From positions 11,365-75,364 of IMG/VR virus record IMGVR_UViG_3300028392_000059: 64,000 bases of DNA. One strand, given 5' to 3'. The notes below the pieces were generated by a model that saw only the letters and a program-made list of their open reading frames with translations, had not been told where the DNA came from and searched no databases. Shown here in pieces: positions 12,664 through 63,184 of this stretch (position 1 is its first letter; every line of letters begins with the position of its first letter). The stretch comes from a virus. Position numbers and translations under genes: made by a program.

Positions 12664-13851
12664 TTACTGGTGGAAGATCGGCAGAATACCGAGCGACAGA
12701 GCAGACATAGCCTTACGCTGCCAAATGCCACGCACGTTGGCAATGTTAGCATCAACCATACCAGCGACTGTACGCTTAGTAGTACCATCCATAACCGACA
12801 TATAGTCAGCATCCGACGGGAAAGCTTCTTCAGGACCGGCCCAGCTATAACCAGCAGGAGCGACCACATAACCCCAACGATGCCACACTTCAGTGGTACC
12901 ACCACCCTGATAAGCACCCGGATTACGGAAGATTTCAGTATCATCAGGGATAGCAAGCGATTCCATCGCAAGCGCACCCGGAAGCACGATAAACGATGTA
13001 AACGAGTTAGCCGTAATATCAACACCAGCACCAATATTCAGCTTTGTGATTTCCGCAGAAGTCAAAGCAGTATTAGCACGCGTGTTAATCAGACGAAACT
13101 TGCCCTGGAAGATAGTCGAAAACTCGACATTACCATCAACAACACGATCTTCATCAACAAGGTTAGCCGAACGCAGCGAAGCCATAATAGCCGGGCTGGT
13201 AACAAGGTAAGCATAATCGGGCTCATAGTCTTTATAAGCCATACCAAAGGCACGAATAAAGGCTTCAGCACGAGCAGCACCCTGCACAGCAGCAGTAGCA
13301 GCAATAACAGGAGCAGCACCAAGGTCAACATAGAAACCATAACGACGATCAGTAGGATCATTGTAGAAGGTTTGACCACCAAGACCAGCAGAACCACTAC
13401 CAGTAGCAGCACCGTTAAGCACTTCCGAAACGGCAACACCCTTAAGCACAGACAGAATAGCGTTATGCTCATCTTGTGCATGCGTCTCACCAAAGTCACG
13501 ACCAAGCTTAGCAAGACCATCAACCTGCGTCACAACCTGCTGCAGATTAATCTTTTCATAACCATGCGTACGCACAGTCTTAATGTACTGCTGATAGTCA
13601 GAACCATAAGTGGTCTTGGTACCAGCGGTAGAGTCAGTAAGCGAGGCAACGTTAATGGTAGGGTTCAGCGGCTTAAACCAGCGCATCTGACCAATAAACG
13701 TTTCAGTAGCAGTATCAATCTGCGGGTTACCACTAACAATAGCGGTAGACGACAGCTTCTTTGCATTAGTATAGGCTTCGTCGGAATACGCGCCAAGCGT
13801 CTCCTGAAGCACAAAGTTAGTAGCGCCAGCAGGCGAAACCGGAGTAGGCAT
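12664..13851 (-). CDS. Major capsid protein
   Basis: 395 aa, strongest codon bias in the window, follows the scaffold gene; YQGGGTTEVWHRWGYVVAPAGYSW C-terminal pattern of HK97-fold coat proteins. Confidence 0.88.
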   Translation of the reverse strand: MPTPVSPAGATNFVLQETLGAYSDEAYTNAKKLSSTAIVSGNPQIDTATETFIGQMRWFKPLNPTINVASLTDSTAGTKTTYGSDYQQYIKTVRTHGYEKINLQQVVTQVDGLAKLGRDFGETHAQDEHNAILSVLKGVAVSEVLNGAATGSGSAGLGGQTFYNDPTDRRYGFYVDLGAAPVIAATAAVQGAARAEAFIRAFGMAYKDYEPDYAYLVTSPAIMASLRSANLVDEDRVVDGNVEFSTIFQGKFRLINTRANTALTSAEITKLNIGAGVDITANSFTSFIVLPGALAMESLAIPDDTEIFRNPGAYQGGGTTEVWHRWGYVVAPAGYSWAGPEEAFPSDADYMSVMDGTTKRTVAGMVDANIANVRGIWQRKAMSALSLGILPIFHQ

Positions 13852-13864
13852 TTAATTAATTCCC

Positions 13865-14560
13865 TTAGGCACGCTTACGGAGATTTCCTTCCGCAGCAAG
13901 TTTCAGAACATCAGCCTGAGACATACCAAAGAGTGACTTACCCTTTGTATCTGCAGGTGTTGTAGTTGTTGTAGTTGTTGATGTACCGCCACCAGACGAA
14001 CGCTTAGCCTTAAGCAAGAATGAATTGTCATCGTGCTCTAAGAAAGACTTAACGAATGCTGCAATAGTAACACCGCTCCTATGAACCCATTCACCAGCAT
14101 CATTCTTATGAAGTTCAGATGTAATGTCACGCTTTGCCATTTCAGCAGCTTTGGCATTTCTGAATTCGTATCCTGCAAGAACATTGCTAACGGCAATATC
14201 GCGCGTGTTCACTACATCACGCTCTTCAAGCTCACGAATCTTAGCTTCCATGTCGGCACGCTCACGTTCGAAAGCTTCTTGCAATTTACCTTCATCTTTA
14301 AGACGCTGAGTCTCACGATCACGATCAGCCTTTTCACGTTCAGCAAGCTTCTTTGCGGCATCATCACGAGCAGCATAGGCAGCATCAAGCTTACGCTTCA
14401 TATCTGCTTTAGCTTCGTCAATCGCCTTTTGAACTTCTGTACGCTTGTCTTCAGCTTCAACGGGAGTACCATCTTCGTTCTTTGTCGGATCGTAGTCAGG
14501 ATTATCAATCATCTGACCTTCATTTTCAGGATCAGGGATTTGCTTAGGATTAACTAACAT
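13865..14560 (-). CDS. Capsid scaffolding protein
   Basis: Acidic N-terminus, long coiled coil, SSGGG/T-rich linker and short basic C-terminal helix; upstream of capsid gene. Confidence 0.82.
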   Translation of the reverse strand: MLVNPKQIPDPENEGQMIDNPDYDPTKNEDGTPVEAEDKRTEVQKAIDEAKADMKRKLDAAYAARDDAAKKLAEREKADRDRETQRLKDEGKLQEAFERERADMEAKIRELEERDVVNTRDIAVSNVLAGYEFRNAKAAEMAKRDITSELHKNDAGEWVHRSGVTIAAFVKSFLEHDDNSFLLKAKRSSGGGTSTTTTTTTPADTKGKSLFGMSQADVLKLAAEGNLRKRA

Positions 14561-14658: not shown

Positions 14659-14688
14659 ACCCATACCTGGGTTAATTTAACGGGGTCT
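14659..14688 (-). promoter_or_regulatory. Putative phage RNAP promoter (copy upstream of scaffold/capsid)
   Basis: Sense AGACCCCGTTAAATTAACCCA-GGTA-TGGGT; the core recurs at three other intergenic sites. Confidence 0.75.
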
Positions 14689-14691
14689 GCA

Positions 14692-17600
14692 TTACCCGAC
14701 GCCATACCATCCATGATTCTGCTCAAAATCATACGGAGCGTCTTCTAAGATATCCTCAACAGTCAATATGTCTTCTTTGGTAAGAATACGATCACCAACT
14801 TTTGATTTACCGGCGACAGGTATCAGTCCTTTATCAATTGCTTCTTGCAAGTAAGCATCGTAACTTGCTTTTGGAAGACCTCTAGCAAGCATTTCATCTA
14901 GTGTCATTTTAACAACATTGTTAGTTAGCGTCTCGGCGTAAATACCACGAAGGGCTGTACGTCCAGGAAGCAAATCTGCAATGTTAGTAAAGAAAGCATC
15001 GTGAATAGTGCTCGTAGGAACATTATTACGTTTGCCCCATAAATGAAACTTCTTTACAATTACAGCGTCATTAGAGTGATTACCATTAACAGCAAATGCA
15101 GTACGTGCTTTAGTAGCATCTGCAATGTCGTTAATTTTACCTTCTTTGTTAAGAACCTCATCCCACCAGCTAGCAGTAGTCTTTTGAGGTACCATCAGAA
15201 TATTAGTAGTCCAATTACCGTTTGCATCTTTGTAAACAAGACGCTCTTCAAACGTCTGCGTGAAATTCTGCTCAATTACTTTACCATCAAAGTTTACCCA
15301 AGGAACATTTGTCCATGATTTAGGTAGATCATTCATACTTGTATAAGCAACAGACACTTCACTAGCCTTAGAAACATCTTTAAGTGTAGTGATACCAAGC
15401 TTGCTAGCTACATCACCAGCTACACCAAAATCTAACTTCCAAAGCTTACGACCTACAGCACGGTCTTCAGGTATGTCAACACCAAGCAGCAAATCAGCAA
15501 GTCCGCTGTTAGGGTTCCATTTAGAAAATACCTTCTGCAATAGCTGTTCTGTAACAGGTGTATTTGCTGGTAAGCCAAGTACTTGTGATAACACTTTAGG
15601 CAGACGATAACCTTTACTGCGTTTACCACGAAGTGCAAGAGTTGCTACTGTCTTCCAACTGATATTAGCATTTGAAGGTTTAGCATTCGTAAGGTACTCT
15701 TGTGCCAACCTGCCAAAGAATTTTGTAAAGTCCTTAAGAATAGGAACCTGTTCAGCAAGATGATCACTCATGATATTAGCTATCTGTTTGAAGTCATCAG
15801 GTGTTACAATGCGTTCATACGACTGAGAAAGCTTTTCAACAATATCTTTTGTAGCAGGATCAAGAAACCAAAGTTGTTCCATTATCTGGTCGCCAGGGTC
15901 TTGTCCTTTGTTAAAGATATCTCTAACATCATCACGTAAAGAACGTAGCAGTTGTTCGCCCTCAGGGTCATATCGTGCTACACGTGCAATACGCGCATCA
16001 ATTTCGTTGAGAACTTTTTGACGATCTGTAGCAGTAACAACAAGTGTCCCTGAGTCTTTACCAAGCACTTTACCAAGCTTACCTTCTACGTTAAGAATAC
16101 CAGTACGTTCACCAGCACCATAGAAAGTAACCATGTTTTGGGCTTTAGCAGCTTTCTGCAAGTCTTTAAGACCAAGTCCTAACTTTTCATTAATCTTTTT
16201 AAAGCGAGGATCATTATATGTTGATGCTGCAATTTCATCGTATAGACGACGTTTTTGATTAGTCAACACAACATTAGAAAGGCCAGCTAATTGCTTATTA
16301 CGCGTAGTAAGTGCAATAATCTGAGCGCCAGATGAACTAGCGTCTTGTTCCATTGCAAGCGCAGTTTCAAACGTATCTAATGTGCCACCAGCAGCAAGAT
16401 GACGATCTATTTTAGCTGTCTCAATTGCAAAACGAAAGAACTTACCTAACTCTTCACCATCAACACGCTGTACTGTAGGGTCTTCGAGAATAGCGCGTAT
16501 ATCAGCAGGCTTTGCACTGATCATACGTTCACCAATTTCTCGAAGCTTAGGTCTCCAAGTAGCAGCAATCTTACGCCTACCCGTAAATGTAAGACTATCA
16601 TATGGTCCTTCAAAGTGATCGCTAAGACCACCAAGAAAGGCACCAATCTGATCTGTCAAAGCGTCATTACCGTCATTACCGAGAATTTTAACTGCTTCTG
16701 TATTTAAGAAGGGCCTAAAACTCTCACCCGACTGCGGGCTTATAAGACCACGGTCATAAACGCGAGCACGATGGTCAATGAACGGATGATTGCTAAATGC
16801 AGCATCTTTCTCACGTAACCACTGCATAGATTTAAAGCGCTCGTAGGCGTCACCACGAGAACTAATGTAATGCTTGTACTCATTCAAATCATCATAAAAA
16901 GCTGCTTTACCGCGATCATCTTTGAAGTAAAGAAGCTTTTGGGTAAAGTCATAAAAGTCCGGATCAACCTTATACTTTGTTTTAGAAGCCCACGTTAGTG
17001 CATCAACGAGCTGCTTGTCAACAAACTTAACAGGGAAATCGCTATATGATGACGTAGAGGTAATTGGGATACGCGTATCATAAAGGCCGAGAACGCCCCT
17101 GTCGATGAAATACGTCTTGTAGCCTTCGCGGAATAGCAGACGATTTTTGTCATTTATAACTCCAACACGTAATCCAAGCTCAACTTGCCTTGTAAGCTTT
17201 GAATAGGCAGCAATACGAGGATCAATAACATTTACATAATATGATACAGTGTCATAGTACGGACCGAAATATGCACCAGACAGGCGTGAACGCATTCTAC
17301 GCTTTTGAACACCAAATGTATCAATCTCAAACAGATGCCCAGCTTTCTTCTCAAGAATGTTAAGACCCGTTTGATACCATTGTTTGCGATTACCATTAAG
17401 ATTTGCAAGATTATAAAGATCACGACCAAGTGATACAGCAAGCGAGTCTCTATCAGGAGAATCAGCCATACCAAGCTTATGTGCAAATCTAAGGTAAAAC
17501 TGCTGCATTTGTGAGTCGTCAATCCGACCACGTAACCGTAAAGGGATTGTAGTGTCGAACACGCCTTTAAGTTCAGCAGCTATTTGAGGAGCTACTCTAT

Positions 17601-19344
17601 CTTCCCATGCATTGCGTGCTACAATATTCTTAACAAAGTTTCTTTCAAGAGTGTCAAGCTGTGTACGACCAAGAACAGGATCAATGTAATCATCGTCTAC
17701 CAGCTTTTTGAGAACATCTTGCCCTTTACGGATTTGAGTTTCAATAGCGTCAGAGACATTCATAACATCAAACTTAACTTGTGATTGCGCTACAGCTTTA
17801 AAGTTACCCCAAACTTCACGGTTATCTCGATAACGGCCGATTACAACACGAAGGTTATCAGCAATAACAGCACGCTCATTCATACTAAGCTTTAAAGAAA
17901 CATCGTCAAGAACTTTATTAATGAAAGCTTTGTCATCGTCTTTAAGGCTTACACTCTCATTTACACGACGAACAGCACCTTCAAAGACTTCAGCGTTAGG
18001 TTGATACAAACGAACGTCATCATACCTACCTGTAAGCGGATTGAAACGCAACTGCTCTTCAGTAGGAGGAGATTGGAGTACTCTACGCTTTGTAGCTTTC
18101 TTCGTATGCAAGAGTGTACCACGATAGTTTGTCAATGATAACGTACCATCAAGCTCACCTGCTTGCAACAAATAATAGTCTACAAGAGTATTACGCATGT
18201 TATATAAATCTTCAGGCGTAGCAGCGCCAAGTTGCATAGCATCTAGTTTAGCTTTTGCATCGGCAAATTTACGTGTATCACCAGGGATTGTATAGCTATC
18301 AGCAGTCAGCTGACGAAGCTCTTTGATACCAATTGTGTTACCGTTCGGATTGCTAAACTTGTCAACAGTCAGTTTGTTTGTATTCAAAAGATCAACTGAC
18401 TTGTAATCACCAAGATGACGCAACTGTACATCCGAAGGTTGACGCTTAAGCCAATCATTATAGCTTTCTCTTAACGGTGTCTGACCGTCATAGTATGCTT
18501 GTTGCTTCGGCGTGAGGTTTGCAAGGTTTCTTTTTCTTACTTCCGCAGCACTTTCCAAAGAACCAATATCAGACCAAGACTTAAACACAGGTATAGTCGT
18601 AGAACGACAGTTCCAGTGAGCAGGCGGTAGGTGCTCCACATCACCAACGGGGTAAATAACGCCGTCCCTATGAGAGCACAGAGGAGTAGTCCTTGAATCG
18701 AGAACGGCCACATACTGCCACCCATTAAGGGCTTTCTCATTAGCTTTGTAAACTTCATGATCCGCCTGTGCATGTACTGATGTGATACTTGTAGTAACCA
18801 GCGACTGTGCTTGGAAACGTGTGATTTTGTGAACGTTACCACGACGTACATCAAGAGCAATATCAGTTGCTGTTTTACCTTCTGAGATACCTTTACGAAT
18901 TACAGCTTCAATACGTTGCTTTTCAAGAACAGACATACCGGCCCAACTTTGTGACAATGTCTTATCATTATACAAAGGACGTTCAAGCACAACTTCTTCA
19001 GCAACACGACGAGTAGGTCTTTGTGTGCGCCAAATCTTACCCATTACAGATTCCATGTTTTGATAAGCAAATGATGCTTGATCAGCAAACAAATCTAGTA
19101 ATGAACGACGGTGAGTAGATTGTAATTCGGTATATGTATCTACGAGTTCTTTATCAATTGCTTCTCGTAGTGTTTCAAGACCTTTGGCAGATGTATGAGC
19201 ATCTTGAATGAGCTTGTCAAGTCTAACTGTATGGCCGTCAATAACTAACGAAACCTTACCTTGTACTCGACGCTCATAAAGACGAATCATCGCCGCTCTA
19301 TCAACAGCCTTGTCGTAAAGTTGTGTGTTAGCATTAACGGCCAC
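14692..19344 (-). CDS. MuF (SPP1 gp7-like) head morphogenesis domain fused to a T7-family single-subunit RNA polymerase; putative virion RNAP
   Basis: N-terminal WQYVAVLDSRTTPLC...PPAHWNCRS (MuF). C-terminal DHRARVY, QDASSSGAQ (motif A), KAQNMVTFYG (motif B), NHSNDA and IHDAF (motif C). Confidence 0.9.
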   Translation of the reverse strand: MAVNANTQLYDKAVDRAAMIRLYERRVQGKVSLVIDGHTVRLDKLIQDAHTSAKGLETLREAIDKELVDTYTELQSTHRRSLLDLFADQASFAYQNMESVMGKIWRTQRPTRRVAEEVVLERPLYNDKTLSQSWAGMSVLEKQRIEAVIRKGISEGKTATDIALDVRRGNVHKITRFQAQSLVTTSITSVHAQADHEVYKANEKALNGWQYVAVLDSRTTPLCSHRDGVIYPVGDVEHLPPAHWNCRSTTIPVFKSWSDIGSLESAAEVRKRNLANLTPKQQAYYDGQTPLRESYNDWLKRQPSDVQLRHLGDYKSVDLLNTNKLTVDKFSNPNGNTIGIKELRQLTADSYTIPGDTRKFADAKAKLDAMQLGAATPEDLYNMRNTLVDYYLLQAGELDGTLSLTNYRGTLLHTKKATKRRVLQSPPTEEQLRFNPLTGRYDDVRLYQPNAEVFEGAVRRVNESVSLKDDDKAFINKVLDDVSLKLSMNERAVIADNLRVVIGRYRDNREVWGNFKAVAQSQVKFDVMNVSDAIETQIRKGQDVLKKLVDDDYIDPVLGRTQLDTLERNFVKNIVARNAWEDRVAPQIAAELKGVFDTTIPLRLRGRIDDSQMQQFYLRFAHKLGMADSPDRDSLAVSLGRDLYNLANLNGNRKQWYQTGLNILEKKAGHLFEIDTFGVQKRRMRSRLSGAYFGPYYDTVSYYVNVIDPRIAAYSKLTRQVELGLRVGVINDKNRLLFREGYKTYFIDRGVLGLYDTRIPITSTSSYSDFPVKFVDKQLVDALTWASKTKYKVDPDFYDFTQKLLYFKDDRGKAAFYDDLNEYKHYISSRGDAYERFKSMQWLREKDAAFSNHPFIDHRARVYDRGLISPQSGESFRPFLNTEAVKILGNDGNDALTDQIGAFLGGLSDHFEGPYDSLTFTGRRKIAATWRPKLREIGERMISAKPADIRAILEDPTVQRVDGEELGKFFRFAIETAKIDRHLAAGGTLDTFETALAMEQDASSSGAQIIALTTRNKQLAGLSNVVLTNQKRRLYDEIAASTYNDPRFKKINEKLGLGLKDLQKAAKAQNMVTFYGAGERTGILNVEGKLGKVLGKDSGTLVVTATDRQKVLNEIDARIARVARYDPEGEQLLRSLRDDVRDIFNKGQDPGDQIMEQLWFLDPATKDIVEKLSQSYERIVTPDDFKQIANIMSDHLAEQVPILKDFTKFFGRLAQEYLTNAKPSNANISWKTVATLALRGKRSKGYRLPKVLSQVLGLPANTPVTEQLLQKVFSKWNPNSGLADLLLGVDIPEDRAVGRKLWKLDFGVAGDVASKLGITTLKDVSKASEVSVAYTSMNDLPKSWTNVPWVNFDGKVIEQNFTQTFEERLVYKDANGNWTTNILMVPQKTTASWWDEVLNKEGKINDIADATKARTAFAVNGNHSNDAVIVKKFHLWGKRNNVPTSTIHDAFFTNIADLLPGRTALRGIYAETLTNNVVKMTLDEMLARGLPKASYDAYLQEAIDKGLIPVAGKSKVGDRILTKEDILTVEDILEDAPYDFEQNHGWYGVG

Positions 19345-19348
19345 AGTT

Positions 19349-19624
19349 TTATCCTTTTAGCTTATCACGAATAACTAAGTAAAGCCAGATAATGTTACCT
19401 ATTAAGAGAACAATACCGGCACTTAGTGCGAACCAATAGTGTAAATCAGCAAAGAAGAAAATATTCCAAACGCCCCAAGCTATGTAAAAGCCTGTCATGG
19501 GCCAAGAAATACCCTTTACTTCGCGATCTTTGATGTATTGAAATACATTCATCCAAGCGATAATTGCTCCGACACCCTCAAAGAACATTACAATTAAGTC
19601 ATTGTTTAACACAATACTTTCCAT
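19349..19624 (-). CDS. Small 3-TM membrane protein, PQ-loop/SemiSWEET-like
   Basis: Three hydrophobic segments; NVFQYIKDREVKGISW loop after the first helix. Confidence 0.5.
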   Translation of the reverse strand: MESIVLNNDLIVMFFEGVGAIIAWMNVFQYIKDREVKGISWPMTGFYIAWGVWNIFFFADLHYWFALSAGIVLLIGNIIWLYLVIRDKLKG

Positions 19625-21278
19625 TTATAATGTTGATAGTTAAGCTCTGATTGTTATCAAAGAGAATAACATGAGAGTTAGTCCAATTGGTACCTGGTGA
19701 TGTTACATAGAACTGCGTCCTAGGTGTACTCGTTCCTGCACGTTTTACAGTACCCCAAGTGGTAGCAGAGTGGTTATGACCTAATACACAAGGCATACCA
19801 ACTTTTCTAAATTCTTTATTTGATCGAGTAGGAACACCCTTAGGCCCAAGATCACCATGCATATTAAGCAAGTGTCCGGCAACAATATGGTTCTCAGTGC
19901 GATCAAGTGCTTTAAAGCGATCGATGTTTTGAGAATTTAAGTATAGAGCTACAGGATCGCTAGTAGCAGCATAAACTTTAACAGGATTACGCTCTTTAAT
20001 GTCAGCAACAACCATGCTAAAGAGCGTGGAGCCAATTTCTAAATTAGCATCATCTTTAGTCCATCGCATCGTATCAATATATTCATTGACATATTCAATG
20101 TGATTAGATGCCACAACAAAGATTTCAGCGTCAGTACGTTCTTTCATCCAATTGATTTCAGCAACAGCCGACTTCAATTCTGTATCAAGGCTGTCATAAC
20201 CAAGTGGTGCTTTCCAAGCGCGTCTAGTAGCTTGTTTAATTTCCCATTTAGACACGCTGTCACAATCTACAAAATCATGTAAATATACACGTTCTGGGTT
20301 AATGGTGGGAATAAGTTGATTAAAGGTAACATCACGAACAACAGGATCAGTTTTACCTGTATGCCAGTCACCCAGAACAATAGCTTTAATAGCGTTAGTG
20401 TGTGGTTTAATTACAGTCTCACCACTATAATAGAATGAGCCACCGCTACGATGATCTAGATCATAACAGCCATTATTTTTGTCAGCAAACAAATGATAAT
20501 ATTGTGTAAAACCATCACCATCGCAGTTCAGTACTACAGCACCATACACATGATTGTGCATAGCAACAGCACCAGTGCGATCTTGTTGTCCAAGCTTGTC
20601 AAGTGTATATGTGGGATGTGTAACAGCACATGATGTCATAATAGCTTTAGGATAGCAATCAACAATCATTTGATGTTGTAATTCTGCAGCGGGTGCCGCA
20701 AAGATTTGATGTGTATTACCACCAAGTTCACACAAAGAGTCTGTAAGAAAGCGTTCTAACGTTGGACGCAAGCGTTCGGTGTTGAGATTAAAGCTGCCAT
20801 TACACACAAGCATGTCGTAAAAGAGAATTTTACCCTTAAGACGATTTGGAAAAAGTTGTGTATATTTACCATCAATAAACTTAACAGGACCGTATTTGAT
20901 TGGTAATACTACTAACACAGCATTTTGATGTTTGCAATATGTTTCAAGTGTAGTAAGCCAATCATTGTTCAACGAGCCACCAAATTGAGCAGCAGTAACA
21001 ACAATTTTCTTAGCGTTACGAACAAGCTTATCACTAACCTTAAAAGCATCTAATTGACGTAAAGCACGTTGTGGTACGGGAATACCAACACCATCTGCTC
21101 TACGCCAGATCAGCTCAGGCAGCTTGTTCTTATCCTTTATTTTATTATATTCTTTTACAAGCTTGAGGATGTCTTCTTCAGGACAATCCAAAGCACGAGC
21201 AATATCATGATAGCTTGTAAACGATACAGCATCATTCCAAACCTTAACGAAAGCTTTTGCTTGATCAAGCTTCTTCAT
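19599..21278 (-). CDS. Calcineurin-like metallophosphoesterase, T5 A1-like
   Basis: Likely start MKKLDQAK at 21278; motifs GDWH, HDFVD, SNH, MHGD, GHNH; middle region IVVTAAQ...LETYCKHQNAVLVVLPIKY recalls the T5 A1 family. Confidence 0.65.
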   Translation of the reverse strand: MKKLDQAKAFVKVWNDAVSFTSYHDIARALDCPEEDILKLVKEYNKIKDKNKLPELIWRRADGVGIPVPQRALRQLDAFKVSDKLVRNAKKIVVTAAQFGGSLNNDWLTTLETYCKHQNAVLVVLPIKYGPVKFIDGKYTQLFPNRLKGKILFYDMLVCNGSFNLNTERLRPTLERFLTDSLCELGGNTHQIFAAPAAELQHQMIVDCYPKAIMTSCAVTHPTYTLDKLGQQDRTGAVAMHNHVYGAVVLNCDGDGFTQYYHLFADKNNGCYDLDHRSGGSFYYSGETVIKPHTNAIKAIVLGDWHTGKTDPVVRDVTFNQLIPTINPERVYLHDFVDCDSVSKWEIKQATRRAWKAPLGYDSLDTELKSAVAEINWMKERTDAEIFVVASNHIEYVNEYIDTMRWTKDDANLEIGSTLFSMVVADIKERNPVKVYAATSDPVALYLNSQNIDRFKALDRTENHIVAGHLLNMHGDLGPKGVPTRSNKEFRKVGMPCVLGHNHSATTWGTVKRAGTSTPRTQFYVTSPGTNWTNSHVILFDNNQSLTINIINGKYCVKQ

Positions 21279-21504
21279 AAGTCTTCTCAAAAATGTCAGG
21301 CTTACACGGATAGAATTCACCATTAACACCACGAATGATGTAATCATAGAGCTTTGCTGTCATTACACCTTTAAGTGTGATAATCTGCAAACCACCACCA
21401 GGTGTATACTTAATATTATTTCCAGCAAAATCGCCTAACGCGTGTAGATTCATTCCTGTCCATTGAACAGCTTGAATCTCAACTGGTAGTTTCCGGTACC
21501 TCAT
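21265..21504 (-). CDS. Conserved phage protein (RKxPVxIxAVQW...YPCKPDIFEKTYE family)
   Basis: Recognisable widespread phage family, function unknown. Confidence 0.75.
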   Translation of the reverse strand: MRYRKLPVEIQAVQWTGMNLHALGDFAGNNIKYTPGGGLQIITLKGVMTAKLYDYIIRGVNGEFYPCKPDIFEKTYEEA

Positions 21505-31596: not shown

Positions 31597-32017
31597 CATC
31601 ATCTTCCTTATCGCCAGTGTGATAAACAACACCTTTTTGAGTTGTATGGACAACAAAAGCAGGAAGTACTTTCTCTTCAACAACATTATGTTCAGGCACA
31701 CGGCCATAGCCATAACGAAGGAGATTGTTAGCAATCCGCTCTTTCTTGTCTAATAGATTGTTAAGTAGATCAGATCGCCATGTTAATGGTTTCTGTGTAG
31801 AAGCACTATACACAACGATCTTCCCATCGCGAATGTCGTATTCACGCTGAATGAGCTGTTCTATCTCACGATACGTCTTAACAAGTTCGCCAATGGGATC
31901 ATAATTTAACACACGAAGACGATCTTTAGACCTTTCGCTACCACCATGATAGCGCATAGCCTTTGTACCGTTACCGTATGCTCCTGGTTGTTCAATAACA
32001 ATGTCTGCAGCTGACAT
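31589..32017 (-). CDS. Probable terminase small subunit
   Basis: First gene of late module, 142 aa, helical, near terL; assignment is positional. Confidence 0.55.
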   Translation of the reverse strand: MSAADIVIEQPGAYGNGTKAMRYHGGSERSKDRLRVLNYDPIGELVKTYREIEQLIQREYDIRDGKIVVYSASTQKPLTWRSDLLNNLLDKKERIANNLLRYGYGRVPEHNVVEEKVLPAFVVHTTQKGVVYHTGDKEDDDG

Positions 32018-32080
32018 GGGACTCGTTTCTCAGTTCGACGATGGAGGAAAAATCAACTAACAACTAAACTCGACAGAGTT

Positions 32081-32332
32081 CATTAAGTTAACGGTGTCGA
32101 CCAACAATTATGCACATATTTCTTTGTACCTTGCAGTGTACAGTTTGAGAATAACATGAATTTATCCACGTTTGTACCACTTATGGCCTTAGACTTTGTA
32201 CCTTTTAATAGTTATATTATATATTTATATTAAGGAGGATACATCATCTACAACTTAACATTGAGGGTGAACCCCCCAGCGGGCAGCTAATCATTAATTT
32301 AACGGGGTCTACCAACATTTGTGCACACATTT
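32081..32332. repeat. Degenerate 41-bp direct repeat (32081-32121 and 32292-32332) containing the promoter core
   Basis: CATTAAGTTAACGGTGTCGACCAACAATTATGCACATATTT vs CATTAATTTAACGGGGTCTACCAACATTTGTGCACACATTT, 6 mismatches. Confidence 0.8.
32294..32310 (-). promoter_or_regulatory. Putative phage RNAP promoter (copy upstream of terminase/late genes)
   Basis: Sense AGACCCCGTTAAATTAA, identical to 14672-14688. Confidence 0.72.
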
Positions 32333-32364
32333 TCAATACAAAAAATTCGCGTTATCGGCCAGAG

Positions 32365-32442
32365 CGAAAAAAAAAAAAGATTGTGTCCCCAACACACCAC
32401 TCAACCAACCCGCAATGGGGTCAATCAAATGGTGTGTTGGGG
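32365..32442 (-). terminator. Long hairpin plus T12 tract ending the accessory region
   Basis: 13-bp inverted repeat CCCCAACACACCA (32387-32399)/TGGTGTGTTGGGG (32430-32442), then sense T12-CG. Confidence 0.65.
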
Positions 32443-32447
32443 TTTTG

Positions 32448-36185: not shown

Positions 36186-36403
36186 CAGCTTTTACAATCA
36201 CAAACAACACATTGAAGATTAATTTCAATGACATTGACAGCAGAGTCACGATCAAACATCATATTCTTTACATCTTCAAGTGTACAATCACTGAAATTTT
36301 CTTCAAGAGCTACATTGATTGCTTCAACTTCGTTTTGTGCTTTGACCTCTTTAAGCTTTAATTCATTATCAAAGAAGTCAATATATGCTACGATGTACCT
36401 CAT
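36185..36403 (-). CDS. Hypothetical protein (72 aa)
   Basis: ORF track; coupled. Confidence 0.6.
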   Translation of the reverse strand: MRYIVAYIDFFDNELKLKEVKAQNEVEAINVALEENFSDCTLEDVKNMMFDRDSAVNVIEINLQCVVCDCKS

Positions 36404-38367
36404 CCGAATACTACCTCAAATGGACGCTTGTCAACAACAATTATCGCCGAGTCCTTTTTAGTGGAAGAGAATCCAAGGCCACTAAGCTGGCTCTCTGAAG
36501 GAGGACACTTGGTTTTGTCAGCAAGTACTTCAAACACCTTGCGATGAGCATCAAGATCGCCACGAAGAAATTCATTATAAATTCCCCGCGCGGCATCGTC
36601 TGTCTTGCATCCTTCCAGAAGGAAAAACCAATGCTTATTCCCAACAGCATTATCATCCCAATAATTAGGGCTAAGCATGATCGAATTAATATTGACCAGA
36701 TTTCCACTAGTAAGTCCCCACTTAGTTTGAGCAATACCCTCGTTTGTGACATCAGGTGCATTCTTAAGGCTTGTAATTGCATTGTTCTTTACATCGAACG
36801 TTGCAATTTCTTGATAACCACGTACAGGTTTGTTATACACAAACTGCTGCTTAGTGCCAATACCCTCAATATCAACAGTACAACCAACGTCAATAGATTC
36901 ACGAGGTGTGAAGTTATGAACAATGATTTTATATCTACCATCAACCATCTTGGTGAAATGAATGTTTTCAACAGCGTCTCGACGATCACCACTAATGTTC
37001 ATATCAACGTCAAGAATACCATATCGGCCATATTTTCTCTGATAACTAATACGATCGACCGGTGTTTCAATGTGGATATCAAGGTCGTCTGTGTTGAACC
37101 AAGCAAGAGATACACGGAACAGTGCATCAACATTGCCACCAGCAGCTTTAACGCGAGCCTTTACAGAGTCAGCAACGTTACCGTCGTATGACCAAGCAAA
37201 GTTGTTATTCCACTTAAACAAAGGTGCACCCGTCTCACCATCTGCTGTAGTGATTGTTACGAAGTTACCAAAATGTTGGGGCTCAACAAGCAGCTGAAGT
37301 TCTTTCTTTCCAGGAAGAACGTGCTCAAAGAAATCACTAACACTAACCTTTGTAGGTGATTCAATTTTAATATGATTAGCCGGTTTGATCTGATCTGCAA
37401 GAAGATCATGAATACCACCCTTCATATTACCAACCACACGGTTAGAAACATAAAGAACATTATTCACTGAAACATCAGAAATGTTTGCAAGGCGACGCTT
37501 AATATTTACGCCAAGCTTTTCAATCTTTTCTGCCGCTTCATTGATCATCTTTGTAGTAACAAGAGACTTTGGCCGCTTATAATTTGTAGGCGCAACCATT
37601 GCTTCGTACTTACTAACAGCAACTGCAAGATCGGTACCCTCGGAGATAGCGACAAGCAGCGTACCAATACTGGTACCACGAATATGCGCAATGTTATTAT
37701 ACTTTTCAAGATTTGCCCACACCCACATTGTCTTTTGAAATGTTGCGTTGTAAGCAATAAGAGCTTCTCGGAGAGACCTTAACGATCGAATATTTTCCAT
37801 ACCACGATAAATATCGTTATTATTTGTTAGTTCAATAACGGTATTAACAGTCTCAACGCTAATTTCATTCAGCGCACGTTGAAAGACATTAAAAGAAGTA
37901 TTAATGCTACCACGATCAGCATCAGGTTTAACAGAATAATGCTTACGACCGACAGCGCCATGGAAGTGATTCCACTTACGCGAAGTCTCAGTGTCGTAAT
38001 TATATTCAACACCGTATTGGCGCTCCTTAGTACGATACACAGAGACAATAGGTGCTTGACGCACAATGTCGCGCATTGTTTCAGCAACAACATTGTACGG
38101 GTACGGCAGTGTGTTGTAATTATCCCAGACAGTAATAATTACGTCGCCGTCAATAGAAACAACAGTGCCAAGATTGCGAATGAAATTCTTACAACAGTTA
38201 CAGTCGTGTTCGGTGCGTTGACGAAATACTTCATTTGTTCCCTCCGGAAAAGCTGCAAGATACGATGCAAAGATGTCTTGAACGTCTACTTTATAGAGTT
38301 CTTGTGAAGACATCTGCGTGTACTGATCATGAACGCTCTTTGAGAATGTAGGAAAATCAGCCGACAT
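36400..38367 (-). CDS. Conserved large phage protein with YfaP/DUF2135-like domain (655 aa)
   Basis: EHDCNCCKNFIR N-terminus; SLAWFNTDDLDIH...LDVDMN...AVENI. Confidence 0.7.
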   Translation of the reverse strand: MSADFPTFSKSVHDQYTQMSSQELYKVDVQDIFASYLAAFPEGTNEVFRQRTEHDCNCCKNFIRNLGTVVSIDGDVIITVWDNYNTLPYPYNVVAETMRDIVRQAPIVSVYRTKERQYGVEYNYDTETSRKWNHFHGAVGRKHYSVKPDADRGSINTSFNVFQRALNEISVETVNTVIELTNNNDIYRGMENIRSLRSLREALIAYNATFQKTMWVWANLEKYNNIAHIRGTSIGTLLVAISEGTDLAVAVSKYEAMVAPTNYKRPKSLVTTKMINEAAEKIEKLGVNIKRRLANISDVSVNNVLYVSNRVVGNMKGGIHDLLADQIKPANHIKIESPTKVSVSDFFEHVLPGKKELQLLVEPQHFGNFVTITTADGETGAPLFKWNNNFAWSYDGNVADSVKARVKAAGGNVDALFRVSLAWFNTDDLDIHIETPVDRISYQRKYGRYGILDVDMNISGDRRDAVENIHFTKMVDGRYKIIVHNFTPRESIDVGCTVDIEGIGTKQQFVYNKPVRGYQEIATFDVKNNAITSLKNAPDVTNEGIAQTKWGLTSGNLVNINSIMLSPNYWDDNAVGNKHWFFLLEGCKTDDAARGIYNEFLRGDLDAHRKVFEVLADKTKCPPSESQLSGLGFSSTKKDSAIIVVDKRPFEVVFG

Positions 38368-43633: not shown

Positions 43634-43648
43634 AGTGTATCCTCTAAA

Positions 43649-43722
43649 TGGTGCTCTTACTCAGAATCGAACTGAGATATCCGCGTTACAAAGGCGGCGC
43701 TCTACCATTGAGCTATAAGAGC
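43649..43722 (-). tRNA. tRNA-Thr (anticodon TGT), CCA encoded
   Basis: GCTCTTA-TA-GCTC-AATGGTA-GAGC-G-CCGCC-TTTGTAA-CGCGG-ATAT-CTCAG-TTCGATT-CTGAG-TAAGAGC-ACCA. Confidence 0.92.
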
Positions 43723-43723
43723 A

Positions 43724-43809
43724 TGGTGCGCATGACTGGACTCGAACCAGCACGTCTAAAAGACACAAGATTTTAAGTCTCGGGCGTCTACCAATTCCGC
43801 CACACGCGC
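43724..43809 (-). tRNA. tRNA-Leu (anticodon TAA), long variable arm, CCA encoded
   Basis: GCGCGTG...GAATTGGTAGA...CGAGA-CTTAAAA-TCTTG...GCTGG-TTCGAGT-CCAGT-CATGCGC-ACCA. Confidence 0.93.
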
Positions 43810-43815
43810 ACTGAG

Positions 43816-46176: not shown

Positions 46177-46204
46177 CCCACAAGTGGGTTAATTTAACGG
46201 GGTC
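46177..46204 (-). promoter_or_regulatory. Putative phage RNAP promoter
   Basis: Sense GACCCCGTTAAATTAACCCA-CTTG-TGGG. Confidence 0.75.
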
Positions 46205-58733: not shown

Positions 58734-58760
58734 ACCCATGATGGGTTAATTTAACGGGTT
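58734..58760 (-). promoter_or_regulatory. Putative phage RNAP promoter (upstream of replication module)
   Basis: Sense AACCCGTTAAATTAACCCA-TCA-TGGGT. Confidence 0.72.
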
Positions 58761-58801
58761 CAGCACTTGCGAAAGTTCGTTCTTAAGGTAATCGTAGTCG
58801 A

Positions 58802-59407
58802 TTAAGCAGAAGGCATTAGAACAGCAGACTCTTCATTAAGAATACCAGCATTAACAAATTCACGCTCACTTGATGTTAGATGCGGCATTGACGCTTCTAT
58901 GTCACCTGTAGCACGCCATTTAGCGTCTTCTTCAGGAGTAAAAGGAATTAGTCGGGTCACATCAGCACAAGAAAATGGAGAAACACGAATAACACCATTC
59001 AATGGACCTCTGAATGAATGCCAATATTTACCATCTTCATTGTTTTTAATAACTGTCATACCAACATTCGGCACTAAACTGAAAATTTCTAGTGGAATAA
59101 GGTAAATCTCTCCGCCAGCATTATTTGTAGCTAGCATTGCAGCTATCCAACTTTTTGAAGGTAAATACCAGATTGCATCAAATGTCGGTGTATTAGTAAG
59201 AATACAGACACCATCTACACCTTTGACCTGCAGTATATCGGTCATGTTTTCGACAATGTTTACGTTACCACCGAAACACTCATCTAATGTACTCTCAGGG
59301 TATTCTGCAAGTTGTTCACTTACAGCCGCTTTAAATTCCAAATGAATTTCTTCATTGAAATTAGCAAGTTCATCAAATGCTTTAAAGATAATCATAAGTT
59401 TCTCCAT
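58802..59407 (-). CDS. Hypothetical protein (about 200 aa)
   Basis: ORF track; C-terminal MPHLTSSEREF motif. Confidence 0.65.
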   Translation of the reverse strand: MEKLMIIFKAFDELANFNEEIHLEFKAAVSEQLAEYPESTLDECFGGNVNIVENMTDILQVKGVDGVCILTNTPTFDAIWYLPSKSWIAAMLATNNAGGEIYLIPLEIFSLVPNVGMTVIKNNEDGKYWHSFRGPLNGVIRVSPFSCADVTRLIPFTPEEDAKWRATGDIEASMPHLTSSEREFVNAGILNEESAVLMPSA

Positions 59408-61647
59408 TAAACAAAACAATACTCGCTATCTAGTACAAGTGACAAGTCAAGTGTACCTAATTGAATTTTAGAAATATCACCACCAATATCTTCCATTAAA
59501 GATGCCAATGGATCAGCTTCATACAATTCAAGAAAAGTTTGTCTAACAATGTTAAACAACTTGGGCATATCCGCAAGTAAACATCCAAACGAATCGTGGA
59601 TTGTCGTAATGGGGAAATCTGCCTTGCACACAGTTATTGTCAAATGAGCTGCATCTAGAGAGTGGATTGCGTTTGGGCTTGCACCTGATACTTGCTTATT
59701 CTTTGAGATGACTTGATCTTCAAGGAAACATACAGCAAGCTGCAAACTATTTTCAAAGTAGCCGGTCGATAATCGAGGGCCTTTAGGTGGACCATACTGT
59801 ACCCAAATCTTTTTTGATTTTCCTTCAGTGTAATATTGTACAACAGGAAATTTAGTGATTGGTACTGTCCAGCTTAGGAACTCGCCACGATCTTCGGCAT
59901 CTTTGCCTGCCTTTTCAAATACAGAAAGTAGTCGCATAGGTTTTTGTAAAGAACGTCTGCAATCATCGTAAACAATTCTACCAAGGTATGCACCCCAACC
60001 ATGCTCCATGAACAGTAGTTTTTCAATACCATGTTTCTTAGAGTCATCAATTTGCTGTTGGCCAAGGCCATAAGGTGTACCACCGTAAGGTAGTGTCATT
60101 ACATTTCGTTTAACAATCTTTCGACGTTCTTTAAGGTCTGTTACAGAGGCCCAATAAACGGGAGCTGCAATAGCGGCAACTCTCTCATTTTGCTTCTTAA
60201 ATTCTTTAATAGCTTCTACTAGCACTTTACGATGCTCTGAACGGGGTTCAGTAGCTTGTATCTGCTTTTTAAAATCCATCAAAGTATCAATGTATATGTT
60301 ACATACGTCAATCTCTTCTTGAGAATACTCGCTGATTATCTCAGCAAGCCGAGCCCATACATGCTCAGCAACATACTTGTAGAGATCACCAGGAAGTTCC
60401 TGAGGGATTAGATTAACGTGAGGCGCGGTGTGCTCATCGCGGGTGAGTGCAGAAAGATGCTGCGATCCATTGTTAGAGCCATCAATGTATACTTCGAGGC
60501 TCGACTCGTAGTTGTAGTTTTTATAGTCGCCTCCATTGACAGTTTGCCACATCCTCAATTTCATAAGCTCATTACAAGCTGCTAGAAATTGCCAAGGCTT
60601 ATCTGCTTTCATCCATCCTTGATTTACTTTAGGATTTTCAGCATACGACAGAAAAAGCTCTTCGTTATCTACACACCACTCAAAACGATCTTTTAATGGT
60701 ATTTTATCTGTCTTGGCTTTATCACTACGTCCAGCGTCATTTGCCCAATTTGAAGCAATTGAGATCATTAGCCAGAAATAACCATCTTCACCAATAGCTT
60801 TCTTATCTTTACGTAACAACAAGCCACGTGCAAGATCAGAACCTTGCTCATGCAAATAAGCTGTAGTTGGATACTTACGACCGCGAAAGTCATAATAGTA
60901 AAGATGGTAAAACGTACTGTTTAAGAAACGTCTTGCAATATCACCAATTGCTCGTGCTTCTCTAAGTTTAGTCGTCTTTGCTTCTATACTAGTTTGTTCC
61001 CAGATATCAGCAAAAGCGTCTGTTTTGTTTCTTAGAGCCCACAAATGCAGCTTATAAATGTCTTCATTAATACGCCAACCAACTTCTTGAGCTCTATTCA
61101 AGCACTCAAACAGCATTGGGTGTGTTTCAGGAAGAACAATATCGAGAACATCTTTGCTACCTGTTTTTATCATCACTGCGCCGGTTTCATGTCTTGTACT
61201 TGTCCAAGGCGCATATGCTGATGTTGCTGGTAGCTTTTCAACAGAAGATGATGTAACCGTAGACCAAAGACTGCAAATGCTTTCATCATCAATGACTTGA
61301 ACTACATACATAGCATGACTTTTAGAGCCTTGGCCGAGCACTAGCTGTATCATCATTAACTTTTCAAAAGACCATAATAGAAACACACCTGTCTTAGCAG
61401 CCAACGCAGAATCACGTTTCTGTTTAAGCTTAGTGCGAACTGCATGGCCAATAGCACTTGCAATTTCAGTCAAATAAATGGATTGATTGCCGTTACCACG
61501 TTTGATACGTGTATACAAGTATGTTACAGAAATGACAGTGTCAAGGTAATCATCAATAGAAAAGTCTTGAAGAAATTTCAAAGGATTTTGAGGAGCGACT
61601 TCTGTTTTAATCCGCTCTTCAATATCAGCGCGTAACCTCTGTCTCAT
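59407..61647 (-). CDS. T7-family single-subunit DNA-dependent RNA polymerase (746 aa)
   Basis: DFRGRKY, DGSNNGSQH, RKIVKRNVMTLPYG, PNAIHSLDA, IHDSF. Confidence 0.95.
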   Translation of the reverse strand: MRQRLRADIEERIKTEVAPQNPLKFLQDFSIDDYLDTVISVTYLYTRIKRGNGNQSIYLTEIASAIGHAVRTKLKQKRDSALAAKTGVFLLWSFEKLMMIQLVLGQGSKSHAMYVVQVIDDESICSLWSTVTSSSVEKLPATSAYAPWTSTRHETGAVMIKTGSKDVLDIVLPETHPMLFECLNRAQEVGWRINEDIYKLHLWALRNKTDAFADIWEQTSIEAKTTKLREARAIGDIARRFLNSTFYHLYYYDFRGRKYPTTAYLHEQGSDLARGLLLRKDKKAIGEDGYFWLMISIASNWANDAGRSDKAKTDKIPLKDRFEWCVDNEELFLSYAENPKVNQGWMKADKPWQFLAACNELMKLRMWQTVNGGDYKNYNYESSLEVYIDGSNNGSQHLSALTRDEHTAPHVNLIPQELPGDLYKYVAEHVWARLAEIISEYSQEEIDVCNIYIDTLMDFKKQIQATEPRSEHRKVLVEAIKEFKKQNERVAAIAAPVYWASVTDLKERRKIVKRNVMTLPYGGTPYGLGQQQIDDSKKHGIEKLLFMEHGWGAYLGRIVYDDCRRSLQKPMRLLSVFEKAGKDAEDRGEFLSWTVPITKFPVVQYYTEGKSKKIWVQYGPPKGPRLSTGYFENSLQLAVCFLEDQVISKNKQVSGASPNAIHSLDAAHLTITVCKADFPITTIHDSFGCLLADMPKLFNIVRQTFLELYEADPLASLMEDIGGDISKIQLGTLDLSLVLDSEYCFV

Positions 61648-62727: not shown

Positions 62728-62940
62728 TTAAACCTTTCTAGAACCAGGCATTGTGCATTTTGTCTTCTTTGCGTTCGGCATGAACGGAACAAATGCCTTC
62801 TGACGAGCACTGAGCCGACGCATTGCTTTACGAAGTTGACGACCACCCGGATATGGTTGGCCCTCACGCTGCCGAGGCGGCATAGTGCAAGGAATCTTAA
62901 CTTTATCCGGATCCATCTTATCGCGTGCATCACCAAACAT
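62728..62940 (-). CDS. Small basic protein (70 aa)
   Basis: AAGGAG RBS; Arg/Lys/Pro-rich. Confidence 0.65.
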   Translation of the reverse strand: MFGDARDKMDPDKVKIPCTMPPRQREGQPYPGGRQLRKAMRRLSARQKAFVPFMPNAKKTKCTMPGSRKV

Positions 62941-62992
62941 GTATATTCTCCTTTTGTTAGGTATATTAGTATACCATATAAGATACCAATAT

Positions 62993-63184
62993 TTACGCGT
63001 TTATTGAAATAATATCTTTCATAGCAAAGTCACGGATTTCGCCTTTATCAATATCCCATGCTTTGAGAAACCATTGTGGTGCTGGGTGCCAGCCAGTAGC
63101 GCCATAAAAGACATTAATAGGCACAATATCACGTGTGCTTTCAACGTCTTTGTAATTCTTATATTCAATCCGTAGGTGCGACAT
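62993..63184 (-). CDS. Stand-alone WYL-domain protein (63 aa)
   Basis: IEYKNYK...RDIVP...QWFLKAWDIDKGEIRDFAMKDI. Confidence 0.75.
   Translation of the reverse strand: MSHLRIEYKNYKDVESTRDIVPINVFYGATGWHPAPQWFLKAWDIDKGEIRDFAMKDIISINA

Follow-up and report, generated by a model that had tools for sequence, protein, structure and literature searches.

A T7-type RNA polymerase predicted from sequence is fused to a MuF-type head protein in a large group of siphoviruses

The window analyzed here is a 64,000-nucleotide stretch of viral DNA that corresponds to bases 11365-75364 of the 75,364-bp IMG/VR record IMGVR_UViG_3300028392_000059, the genome of a freshwater siphovirus judged to be 100% complete by CheckV. 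Coordinates are window positions unless genome positions are specified. Within the late head module lies a gene for a 1550-amino-acid (aa) protein that joins a MuF-type minor head protein to a single-subunit RNA polymerase (RNAP) of the T7 type. An earlier note, made from the letters of the window, had described this open reading frame (ORF) and had proposed that MuF serves as a packaging and delivery tag for a transcription enzyme that is loaded into the capsid and ejected. The ORF is indeed intact, and its parts are as follows.

14692..19344, minus strand: MuF-RNAP fusion gene, 1550 aa, GTG start, no internal stop
17467..19344, minus strand: long-form MuF/SPP1-gp7-type minor head protein part, residues 1-626; phrog_241 covers residues 5-626 (E 3e-62)
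18592..18918, minus strand: Phage_Mu_F core (Pfam PF04233), residues 143-251
14695..17487, minus strand: T7-type single-subunit RNA polymerase part, residues 620-1550
16756..16779, minus strand: IDHRARVY, residues 856-863, equivalent to T7 D421-x-R423-x-R425-V-Y; R861 invariant
16318..16350, minus strand: motif A, EQDASSSGAQI, with catalytic D1001 (T7 D537), invariant
16111..16155, minus strand: motif B, KAAKAQNMVTFYG, with K1067-x7-Y1075-G1076 (T7 K631/Y639/G640), invariant
15064-15087, minus strand: H1423/D1426 (T7 H784 region)
14989..15009, minus strand: motif C, TIHDAFF, with catalytic D1449 (T7 D812), invariant

The head-protein half is readily recognized. The Phage_Mu_F profile matches residues 143-251 over its full length (E 1.8e-13, 51.7 bits versus a cut-off of 29.6), and the MuF motifs quoted in the earlier note were all recovered, with VAVLDSRTTPLC at residues 212-223 and PPAHWNCRS at residues 240-248. 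Residues L215, D216, T219, C223, P240, P241, H243, C246, R247 and S248 are invariant in 31 homologues. An AlphaFold2 (AF2) model of residues 1-640, with a mean predicted local distance difference test score (pLDDT) of 84.8, is matched over its full length by stand-alone head-morphogenesis or minor capsid proteins of 600-690 aa in BFVD (E 1e-11 to 1e-16). The same model resembles MuF-ADP-ribosyltransferase (MuF-ART) fusions in that database, and those of Xanthomonas phage Xp12 and Microbacterium phage Percival are structural matches to it. A Foldseek search of the PDB with this model returned no significant match, and no MuF structure appears to have been solved so far. A complex predicted for the portal protein and MuF residues 1-440 scored 0.00 and carries no weight either way.

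The earlier note had left about 500 aa between the two domains unassigned, a description that no longer holds. Up to approximately residue 626 the protein is a long-form MuF protein, as judged from phrog_241 and the BFVD matches, and from approximately residue 620 it is the N-terminal domain of the polymerase, which aligns with T7 RNAP from about residue 120. Neither Pfam nor PHROG profiles detected any domain besides the MuF-type head protein and the RNAP.

The polymerase half is divergent at the level of single sequences. The Pfam RNA_pol profile (PF00940) exceeds its cut-off at residues 1397-1488 (E 6.5e-6, 25.7 bits versus a cut-off of 22), with a best E value of 1e-25 among homologues, and phrog_414 (RNA polymerase) covers residues 834-1081. 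Pfam recognizes MuF in all 31 homologues and RNA_pol in 27 of them. When the single sequence was compared with PDB sequences by phmmer there was no match; a profile of the family reached T7 RNAP in the PDB with an E value of 1.1e-18 (HMMER), aligning DxRGRVY, motif A, the H784 region and motif C. Motif B was assigned solely by its K-x7-YG pattern and its invariance. Both catalytic aspartates, K-x7-YG and DxRxRxY, all listed in the earlier note, were thus found. Residues R861, D1001, K1067, Y1075, G1076, D1426 and D1449 are invariant in the 31 full-length homologues, whose identity reaches down to 21%.

Structure prediction agrees with the profiles. Residues 620-1550, folded from an alignment of 41 homologues, yielded a model with a pLDDT of 83.7 and a predicted template modeling score (pTM) of 0.83 that retains the right-hand polymerase fold and has an N-terminal domain in addition. 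Foldseek places T7 RNAP and the yeast and human mitochondrial RNAPs at the top ranks (E ~1e-16). Full-length alignments extend to T7 residues 118-122, and the first ~120 T7 residues have no counterpart. Both halves of the fusion protein are under purifying selection. Judging from the motifs and the model, the C-terminal half apparently is a nearly complete, divergent T7-type polymerase that is predicted to be active.

The fusion is a real gene, not an assembly artefact. Profile searches and a census of the architecture, both proposed in the earlier note, were run; the two domains were matched as described above, and a word-indexed search with the polymerase part as query detected the fusion in no fewer than 475 clusters (90% identity), and almost all of these are 1520-1575 aa long and have both Pfam domains. 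Logan contigs from separate freshwater sequencing runs span the domain junction (~17440) with zero differences (X1, 16654-17583; X3, 17389-18036); a listing of runs containing this sequence named no RNA run. When 1.84 billion cluster representatives were searched exhaustively with phmmer, 148 matches were obtained, and in the long ones the polymerase region always begins at residue 610-1300 of a protein of 1300-2070 aa. No free-standing member of the fused-polymerase clade was present among the 148; one apparent exception of 785 aa proved to be a miscalled, truncated part of a 1504-aa ORF and was discarded.

The GenBank phages that carry the protein are EBPR siphovirus 1 (56% identity) and the roseophages DSS3_VP1 and DSS3_PM1 (32%), and in all of these it is annotated as a head protein. 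The earlier note had allowed for database homologues, of which DSS3_VP1 is the nearest in culture, with the annotation "head morphogenesis" only. It had also stated that no experimental characterization was known, and this held up, as no paper describing a MuF-RNAP fusion came up in full-text searches of the literature. Iyer et al. (2017) described many MuF fusions, and N4-like virion RNAPs were said there to be confined to N4-like phages; polymerases are unmentioned by Jamet et al. (2017).

In EBPR siphovirus 1 (L001) and in one further contig (L016), an inserted ORF interrupts the fusion gene between motifs A and B, near residues 1050-1073. The insert in EBPR siphovirus 1 (gp47/gp48/gp49) is an HNH endonuclease, which suggests an intron or homing-endonuclease insertion. 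Inserts may likewise be present in some of the homologues that are 1650-1700 aa long.

The following genes frame the fusion gene, along with a second polymerase gene located elsewhere in the genome.

12664..13851, minus strand: major head protein
13865..14560, minus strand: scaffolding protein, 231 aa
21889..23538, minus strand: portal protein (phrog_145; PF13264)
59407..61647, minus strand: free T7-like RNA polymerase, 746 aa (PF00940, E 8e-66; phrog_414, E 1.6e-114)

The earlier note had placed the fusion gene between the portal and scaffold genes. The scaffold gene does lie directly 3' of it; on the other side, three ORFs separate it from the portal gene, encoding proteins of 136, 582 (19599-21347) and 91 aa. 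The fusion gene is the sole MuF gene of the complete genome, and therefore the MuF head function must come from the fusion. The gp44 protein of phage 80alpha, a minor capsid and ejection protein encoded between portal and scaffold genes, was considered for comparison; it is a positional analogue only, and the paper that describes it does not demonstrate homology to MuF. The 582-aa neighbor (minus strand) is a homologue of the T5 pre-early "DNA transfer protein A1" (phrog_1745, E 5e-66; tblastn matches in the A1 genes of T5-like phages). Here its gene belongs to the late head module and lies between those for the portal and the fusion protein. It might be a second packaged protein.

The genome as a whole has a lytic, T7-like layout. 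A greedy ORF call placed 89 of 101 ORFs on the minus strand, and no integrase turned up among the genome proteins scanned. In the direction of transcription, small early ORFs are followed by the free RNAP and then by a nucleotide kinase, DNA polymerase A, 5'-3' exonuclease, primase-helicase, ribonucleotide reductase and ligase, with two putative tRNAs, noted by eye as tRNA-like sequences in intergenic DNA of the replication module at 43634-43815 (minus strand). The late region opens with a 713-bp noncoding switch region (31735-32447), which holds a strong terminator, a long hairpin with a T12 run, and then two copies of the P_phi motif described below. The terminase gene follows, then a gene for a 982-aa protein of no assigned function, and then the portal, T5-A1-like, fusion, scaffold, major head protein, adaptor and tail genes. 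The late order ends with a tape measure protein, tail fiber genes and the lysis cassette. The tape measure protein is 3288 aa long (genome 11033-20899, minus strand, including the first 9535 bases of the window; PF20155 at residues 109-297), and a protein of this size points to an unusually long tail. In close relatives the left contig end continues from the right end, so the map is circular or permuted, and the contig ends are not physical genome ends. Translation across the joined ends gave no continuous ORF.

The two polymerases encoded by this phage are only distantly similar, as BLASTP aligns motifs A and C alone between them. Both polymerases are present in all five near-complete relatives that were checked. 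Two classes of conserved promoter-like motif, here called P_E and P_phi, occur in the genome, at the following positions.

62975..62998, minus strand: P_E copy 2, GCG-N9-GTATCTTATATG, 0 expected by chance, followed ~35 nt downstream by an early ORF that has a Shine-Dalgarno site
genome 2052-2078, outside the window, minus strand: P_E copy 1, just after the endolysin gene
58746..58761, minus strand: P_phi, GAnCCCGTTAAATTAA, first copy after the free RNAP gene
46189..46204, minus strand: P_phi copy
32294..32309, minus strand: P_phi at the head of the late (terminase/structural) region
32083-32098: two-mismatch twin of P_phi at the head of the late region, 211 bp apart from the 32294-32309 copy
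14672..14687, minus strand: P_phi a few bases past the fusion stop codon, preceding the genes for the scaffold and major capsid proteins
genome 3089-3104: P_phi before the lysis cassette

P_E emerged when the sequences that precede the free RNAP gene were compared between this genome and 40 relatives. It is a bipartite 28-nt motif, GCG-N9-GTATCTTATATGA, with the consensus taaa.tGCGgaAAaa..gGTATCTTATATGAaaa, and its 85 occurrences in 802 kb of related loci are all on the coding strand, with two or three per genome. The sites lie 0.7-5 kb upstream of the free RNAP gene, with the exception of a one-mismatch copy ~6 kb downstream of it in one relative (L028), and the first copy is usually right behind the terminator that ends the lysis cassette. 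In the genome studied here the free RNAP gene is downstream of both copies. Strong Shine-Dalgarno sites (AAGGAG, GAGGAG) follow both copies (window 62937-62992, genome 2015-2052), which argues against a Bacteroidota host despite two database homologues labeled "Flavobacterium sp."

P_phi is a contiguous 19-nt motif in the style of T7 promoters, with the consensus A.CCCGTTAAATTAACCCt. All six copies in this genome are intergenic and on the coding strand, and four exact 13-mers were found versus 0.07 expected. In 69 related loci there are 65 copies, none of them on the opposite strand, and downstream of the free RNAP gene P_phi is the sole conserved motif. A hairpin was considered as a general part of P_phi and rejected, as 21 of 59 instances are followed by a perfect stem of 4 bp or more, versus 9 of 59 after shuffling.

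The arrangement of these elements suggests a transcriptional relay, in which the fused polymerase is carried in the capsid, ejected, and reads P_E, thereby giving rise to the free polymerase, which reads P_phi. We regard this model as moderately likely to be correct. The free polymerase gene sits behind P_E, so whatever reads P_E must be present at entry, and given two phage polymerases and two conserved promoter classes, a relay is the most economical reading. In such a relay, the fusion protein would be made late from the head operon and used in the next infection cycle. Its MuF part would dock on the portal during procapsid assembly and put a few copies inside the capsid, by analogy with gp7 of SPP1. 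The protein would then be ejected with the DNA or just before it, and the fused polymerase would initiate at P_E to make early transcripts that include the free T7-like polymerase gene. Finally, the free polymerase would read P_phi ahead of the operons for replication, lysis, packaging and the capsid, among them the one that contains the fusion gene itself.

SPP1 gp7 provides the precedent for the first steps. A few copies of this protein reach the procapsid interior via the portal, the protein supports the start of infection, and delivery of C-terminal cargo has been attributed to gp7-like proteins (PMC6316719; PMC5576092; PMC5512222). The interpretation in the earlier note is partly supported: all that can be computed is in keeping with it, and portal packaging, ejection, early transcription by the fused enzyme and transcription-driven DNA entry would each follow by analogy with SPP1 gp7 (PMC6316719) and N4.

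Several observations weigh against the relay. The assignment of promoters to polymerases rests on position and parsimony alone, and the Pfam RNA_pol score of 25.7 bits for this protein is weak. The exit of a folded 175-kDa protein through a very long tail is left unexplained. Since the contig ends do not equal the genome ends, P_E may or may not lie at the end that enters first. The lysis cassette, which is located upstream of the early region, has a copy of P_phi in front of it as well, and read-through from it could feed the early genes later in infection. Finally, P_E can be read as a weak sigma-70 promoter, TTGCGG-N16-TATGAw, with a perfect TATAAT in the DSS3_VP1 version, and host polymerase could therefore read P_E.

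This last point underlies the main rival explanation, which appears unlikely but has some merit. The fusion protein would still be packaged, but host polymerase would read P_E and start the infection, as in T7, and the capsid-borne polymerase would act otherwise after entry. It might pull in the rest of the genome, prime replication, or serve P_phi before enough of the free enzyme has been made. The succession of early genes, RNAP, DNA polymerase A, primase-helicase, exonuclease and ligase resembles that of T7, which begins with host polymerase. Yet the conservation of P_E does not follow a sigma-70 promoter. Its information content peaks at GCG and at a 13-nt block that would span the spacer and the -10 element, rather than at TTG and the -10 hexamer; the conserved upstream block is GCG, and conservation does not extend to the TTG of a -35 element. 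Phages of very different hosts share this bipartite motif, and the early region shows no enrichment of sigma-70-like sites (11 versus 16.7 expected from shuffled controls). Furthermore, the conserved motif classes number just two, as do the phage polymerases.

An explanation that we consider quite improbable holds that the fused enzyme is not an early one at all. Tethered to the portal, it would work late in the producing cell, where it might couple transcription to concatemer processing or to the start of packaging, and the fusion protein may be in the virion either way. The gene does belong to the late head operon, and T7 RNAP participates in DNA maturation and packaging. However, a free phage polymerase is already there late in infection, and both the early-restricted P_E and the polymerase that starts the infection would be left unexplained. 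In addition, where MuF-family proteins end in other enzymatic domains, these are viewed as cargo for delivery (PMC5512222, PMC5576092).

It is very improbable that the polymerase module is a dead relic, retained as a structural or DNA-binding extension of MuF. The weak Pfam score and the lack of a single-sequence match to a solved structure would fit such decay, but the catalytic aspartate pair, the lysine, tyrosine and glycine of motif B and DxRxR are invariant in very divergent homologues, and the full fold is kept. An artefact of assembly or gene calling, including the assembly chimera that the earlier note had named as a danger, has a negligible chance of being correct and is already refuted by hundreds of independent contigs with the same uninterrupted ORF and by the Logan contigs that cross the junction.

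The proposed relay can be compared with several known systems. Like gp50 of phage N4, the fusion protein contains a single-subunit RNAP from the T7 superfamily and has its gene among those for late virion proteins, and it would likewise ride in the capsid, read a few early promoters and switch on a second polymerase. Unlike the fusion, N4 gp50 is a polyprotein of ~3500 aa with a central RNAP and an MPTase domain and without MuF, from a podovirus with dedicated ejection proteins; the protein described here has 1550 aa and a MuF-type N-terminal part. Moreover, N4 mini-vRNAP is not the closest relative of the fused module, and the hairpins that serve N4 as early promoters have no parallel in the P_E logo, in which no inverted repeat is conserved.

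A closer parallel in virion architecture is P23-45, a Thermus siphovirus with a very long tail, in which a virion RNAP fused to the tape measure protein, a structural protein that exits the particle during infection, transcribes pre-early genes, including that of a second, non-virion RNAP (PMC10770324; bioRxiv 10.1101/2022.12.01.518664). Both are siphoviruses with a very long tail and an RNAP fused to a structural protein, but carrier and enzyme differ. In P23-45 a tape measure protein carries a two-barrel RNAP, and here a portal-associated MuF protein carries a right-hand polymerase of the T7 type. T7 itself shares with the present phage the fold and catalytic motifs of the polymerase, contiguous phage-specific middle and late promoters, and a similar replication module. 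However, T7 RNAP is free, made early and absent from the virion, and host polymerase starts the infection.

The fusion also resembles MuF toxins and "polyvalent" fusions, in which an N-terminal MuF domain is followed by enzymatic C-terminal cargo that is thought to be injected (PMC5576092, PMC5512222). The MuF fusions listed in these two surveys include none with RNA polymerase as cargo. Nor does the gene look like a MuF polymorphic toxin, as its C-terminal domain is an RNAP, the phage is lytic, and the next gene encodes the scaffold rather than a small immunity protein.

The most informative relatives in culture are DSS3_VP1, whose host is Ruegeria, and DSS3_PM1 (Naomviridae). Their protein KNU84_gp108 is a true homologue, with 32% identity over 91% of the protein, and DSS3_VP1 shares the order of the portal gene, fusion gene, scaffold-like gene and major head protein gene, as well as the free RNAP and the order of the replication genes. 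The start of its early region has a P_E-like motif, GAG-N9-GCATCT, with the spacing of P_E. The sequence AAGTGAGAAAACTAAGGCATCTATAATGA, with that same spacing, is present in three copies, two of them just past a terminator where the early region begins and one before gp032.

35809, 36256 and 67793 (DSS3_VP1 record positions): P_E-like sites

In the genome studied here, 36400-38367 (minus strand) encodes a 655-aa protein without a Pfam match that is 46% identical to gp032 of DSS3_VP1. A P_phi-like motif in the T7 style, ATAGGGTGCGTTAAAGAggg (also given as ...GCGTTAAAGAggg and as GGGTGCGTTAAAGA), is found in DSS3_VP1 after the free RNAP gene and ahead of the portal and tail genes. The two papers on DSS3_VP1 make no mention of an RNA polymerase. 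DSS3_VP1 and DSS3_PM1 carry deoxyuridine-containing DNA (dU-DNA); when the present genome was searched by tblastn with the DSS3_VP1 gene that is annotated as deoxycytidylate deaminase, no homologue appeared.

Matches to P_E also appear in bacterial genomes. An 18-base P_E pattern, GCG-N2-AA-N5-GTATCTTATATGA, has 41 exact matches in GTDB species genomes versus ~17 expected, an expectation that assumes uniform base composition. Many of these orphan copies are in high-GC genomes of Sphingomonadales and Brevundimonas, and they often keep consensus positions that lie outside of the pattern. They include copies in isolate chromosomes of Brevundimonas and Sphingomonas and in metagenome-assembled genomes of Sphingomonadales and Cellvibrionales. 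The surroundings of one, in Brevundimonas terrae, encode PIN/GNAT, ASCH and HAD domains and small unknown ORFs. Such copies could mark satellites or defense islands, or could be clues to the hosts. In a bolder proposal, which we put forward tentatively and with some doubt, P_E and the capsid-borne polymerase would form a self-contained "ignition system" that drives the whole gene program without host polymerase, and the orphan copies would be tripwires read by the injected polymerase. If so, satellites or defense islands could sense infection by these phages via their P_E copies.

Virion RNAPs let a phage start its program without the host, and so far they are known from a few special lineages, namely N4-like, crAss-like and jumbo phages and P23-45. 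By analogy with these systems, MuF-RNAP can be inferred to be a variant among virion-delivered phage RNA polymerases, with a different carrier and a different type of enzyme. Candidate promoters for both polymerases are now defined, and DSS3_VP1 grown on Ruegeria pomeroyi DSS-3 provides a cultured, tractable system, so the model is directly testable. The fusion is spread through a large group of siphoviruses, mostly from fresh water and the sea. If the proposed relay is correct, these phages would possess a compact T7-type virion enzyme that travels on the commonest portal-associated head protein, and two new orthogonal polymerase-promoter pairs would be available. It would also mean that MuF proteins deliver an enzyme of ~100 kDa and not small toxins only.

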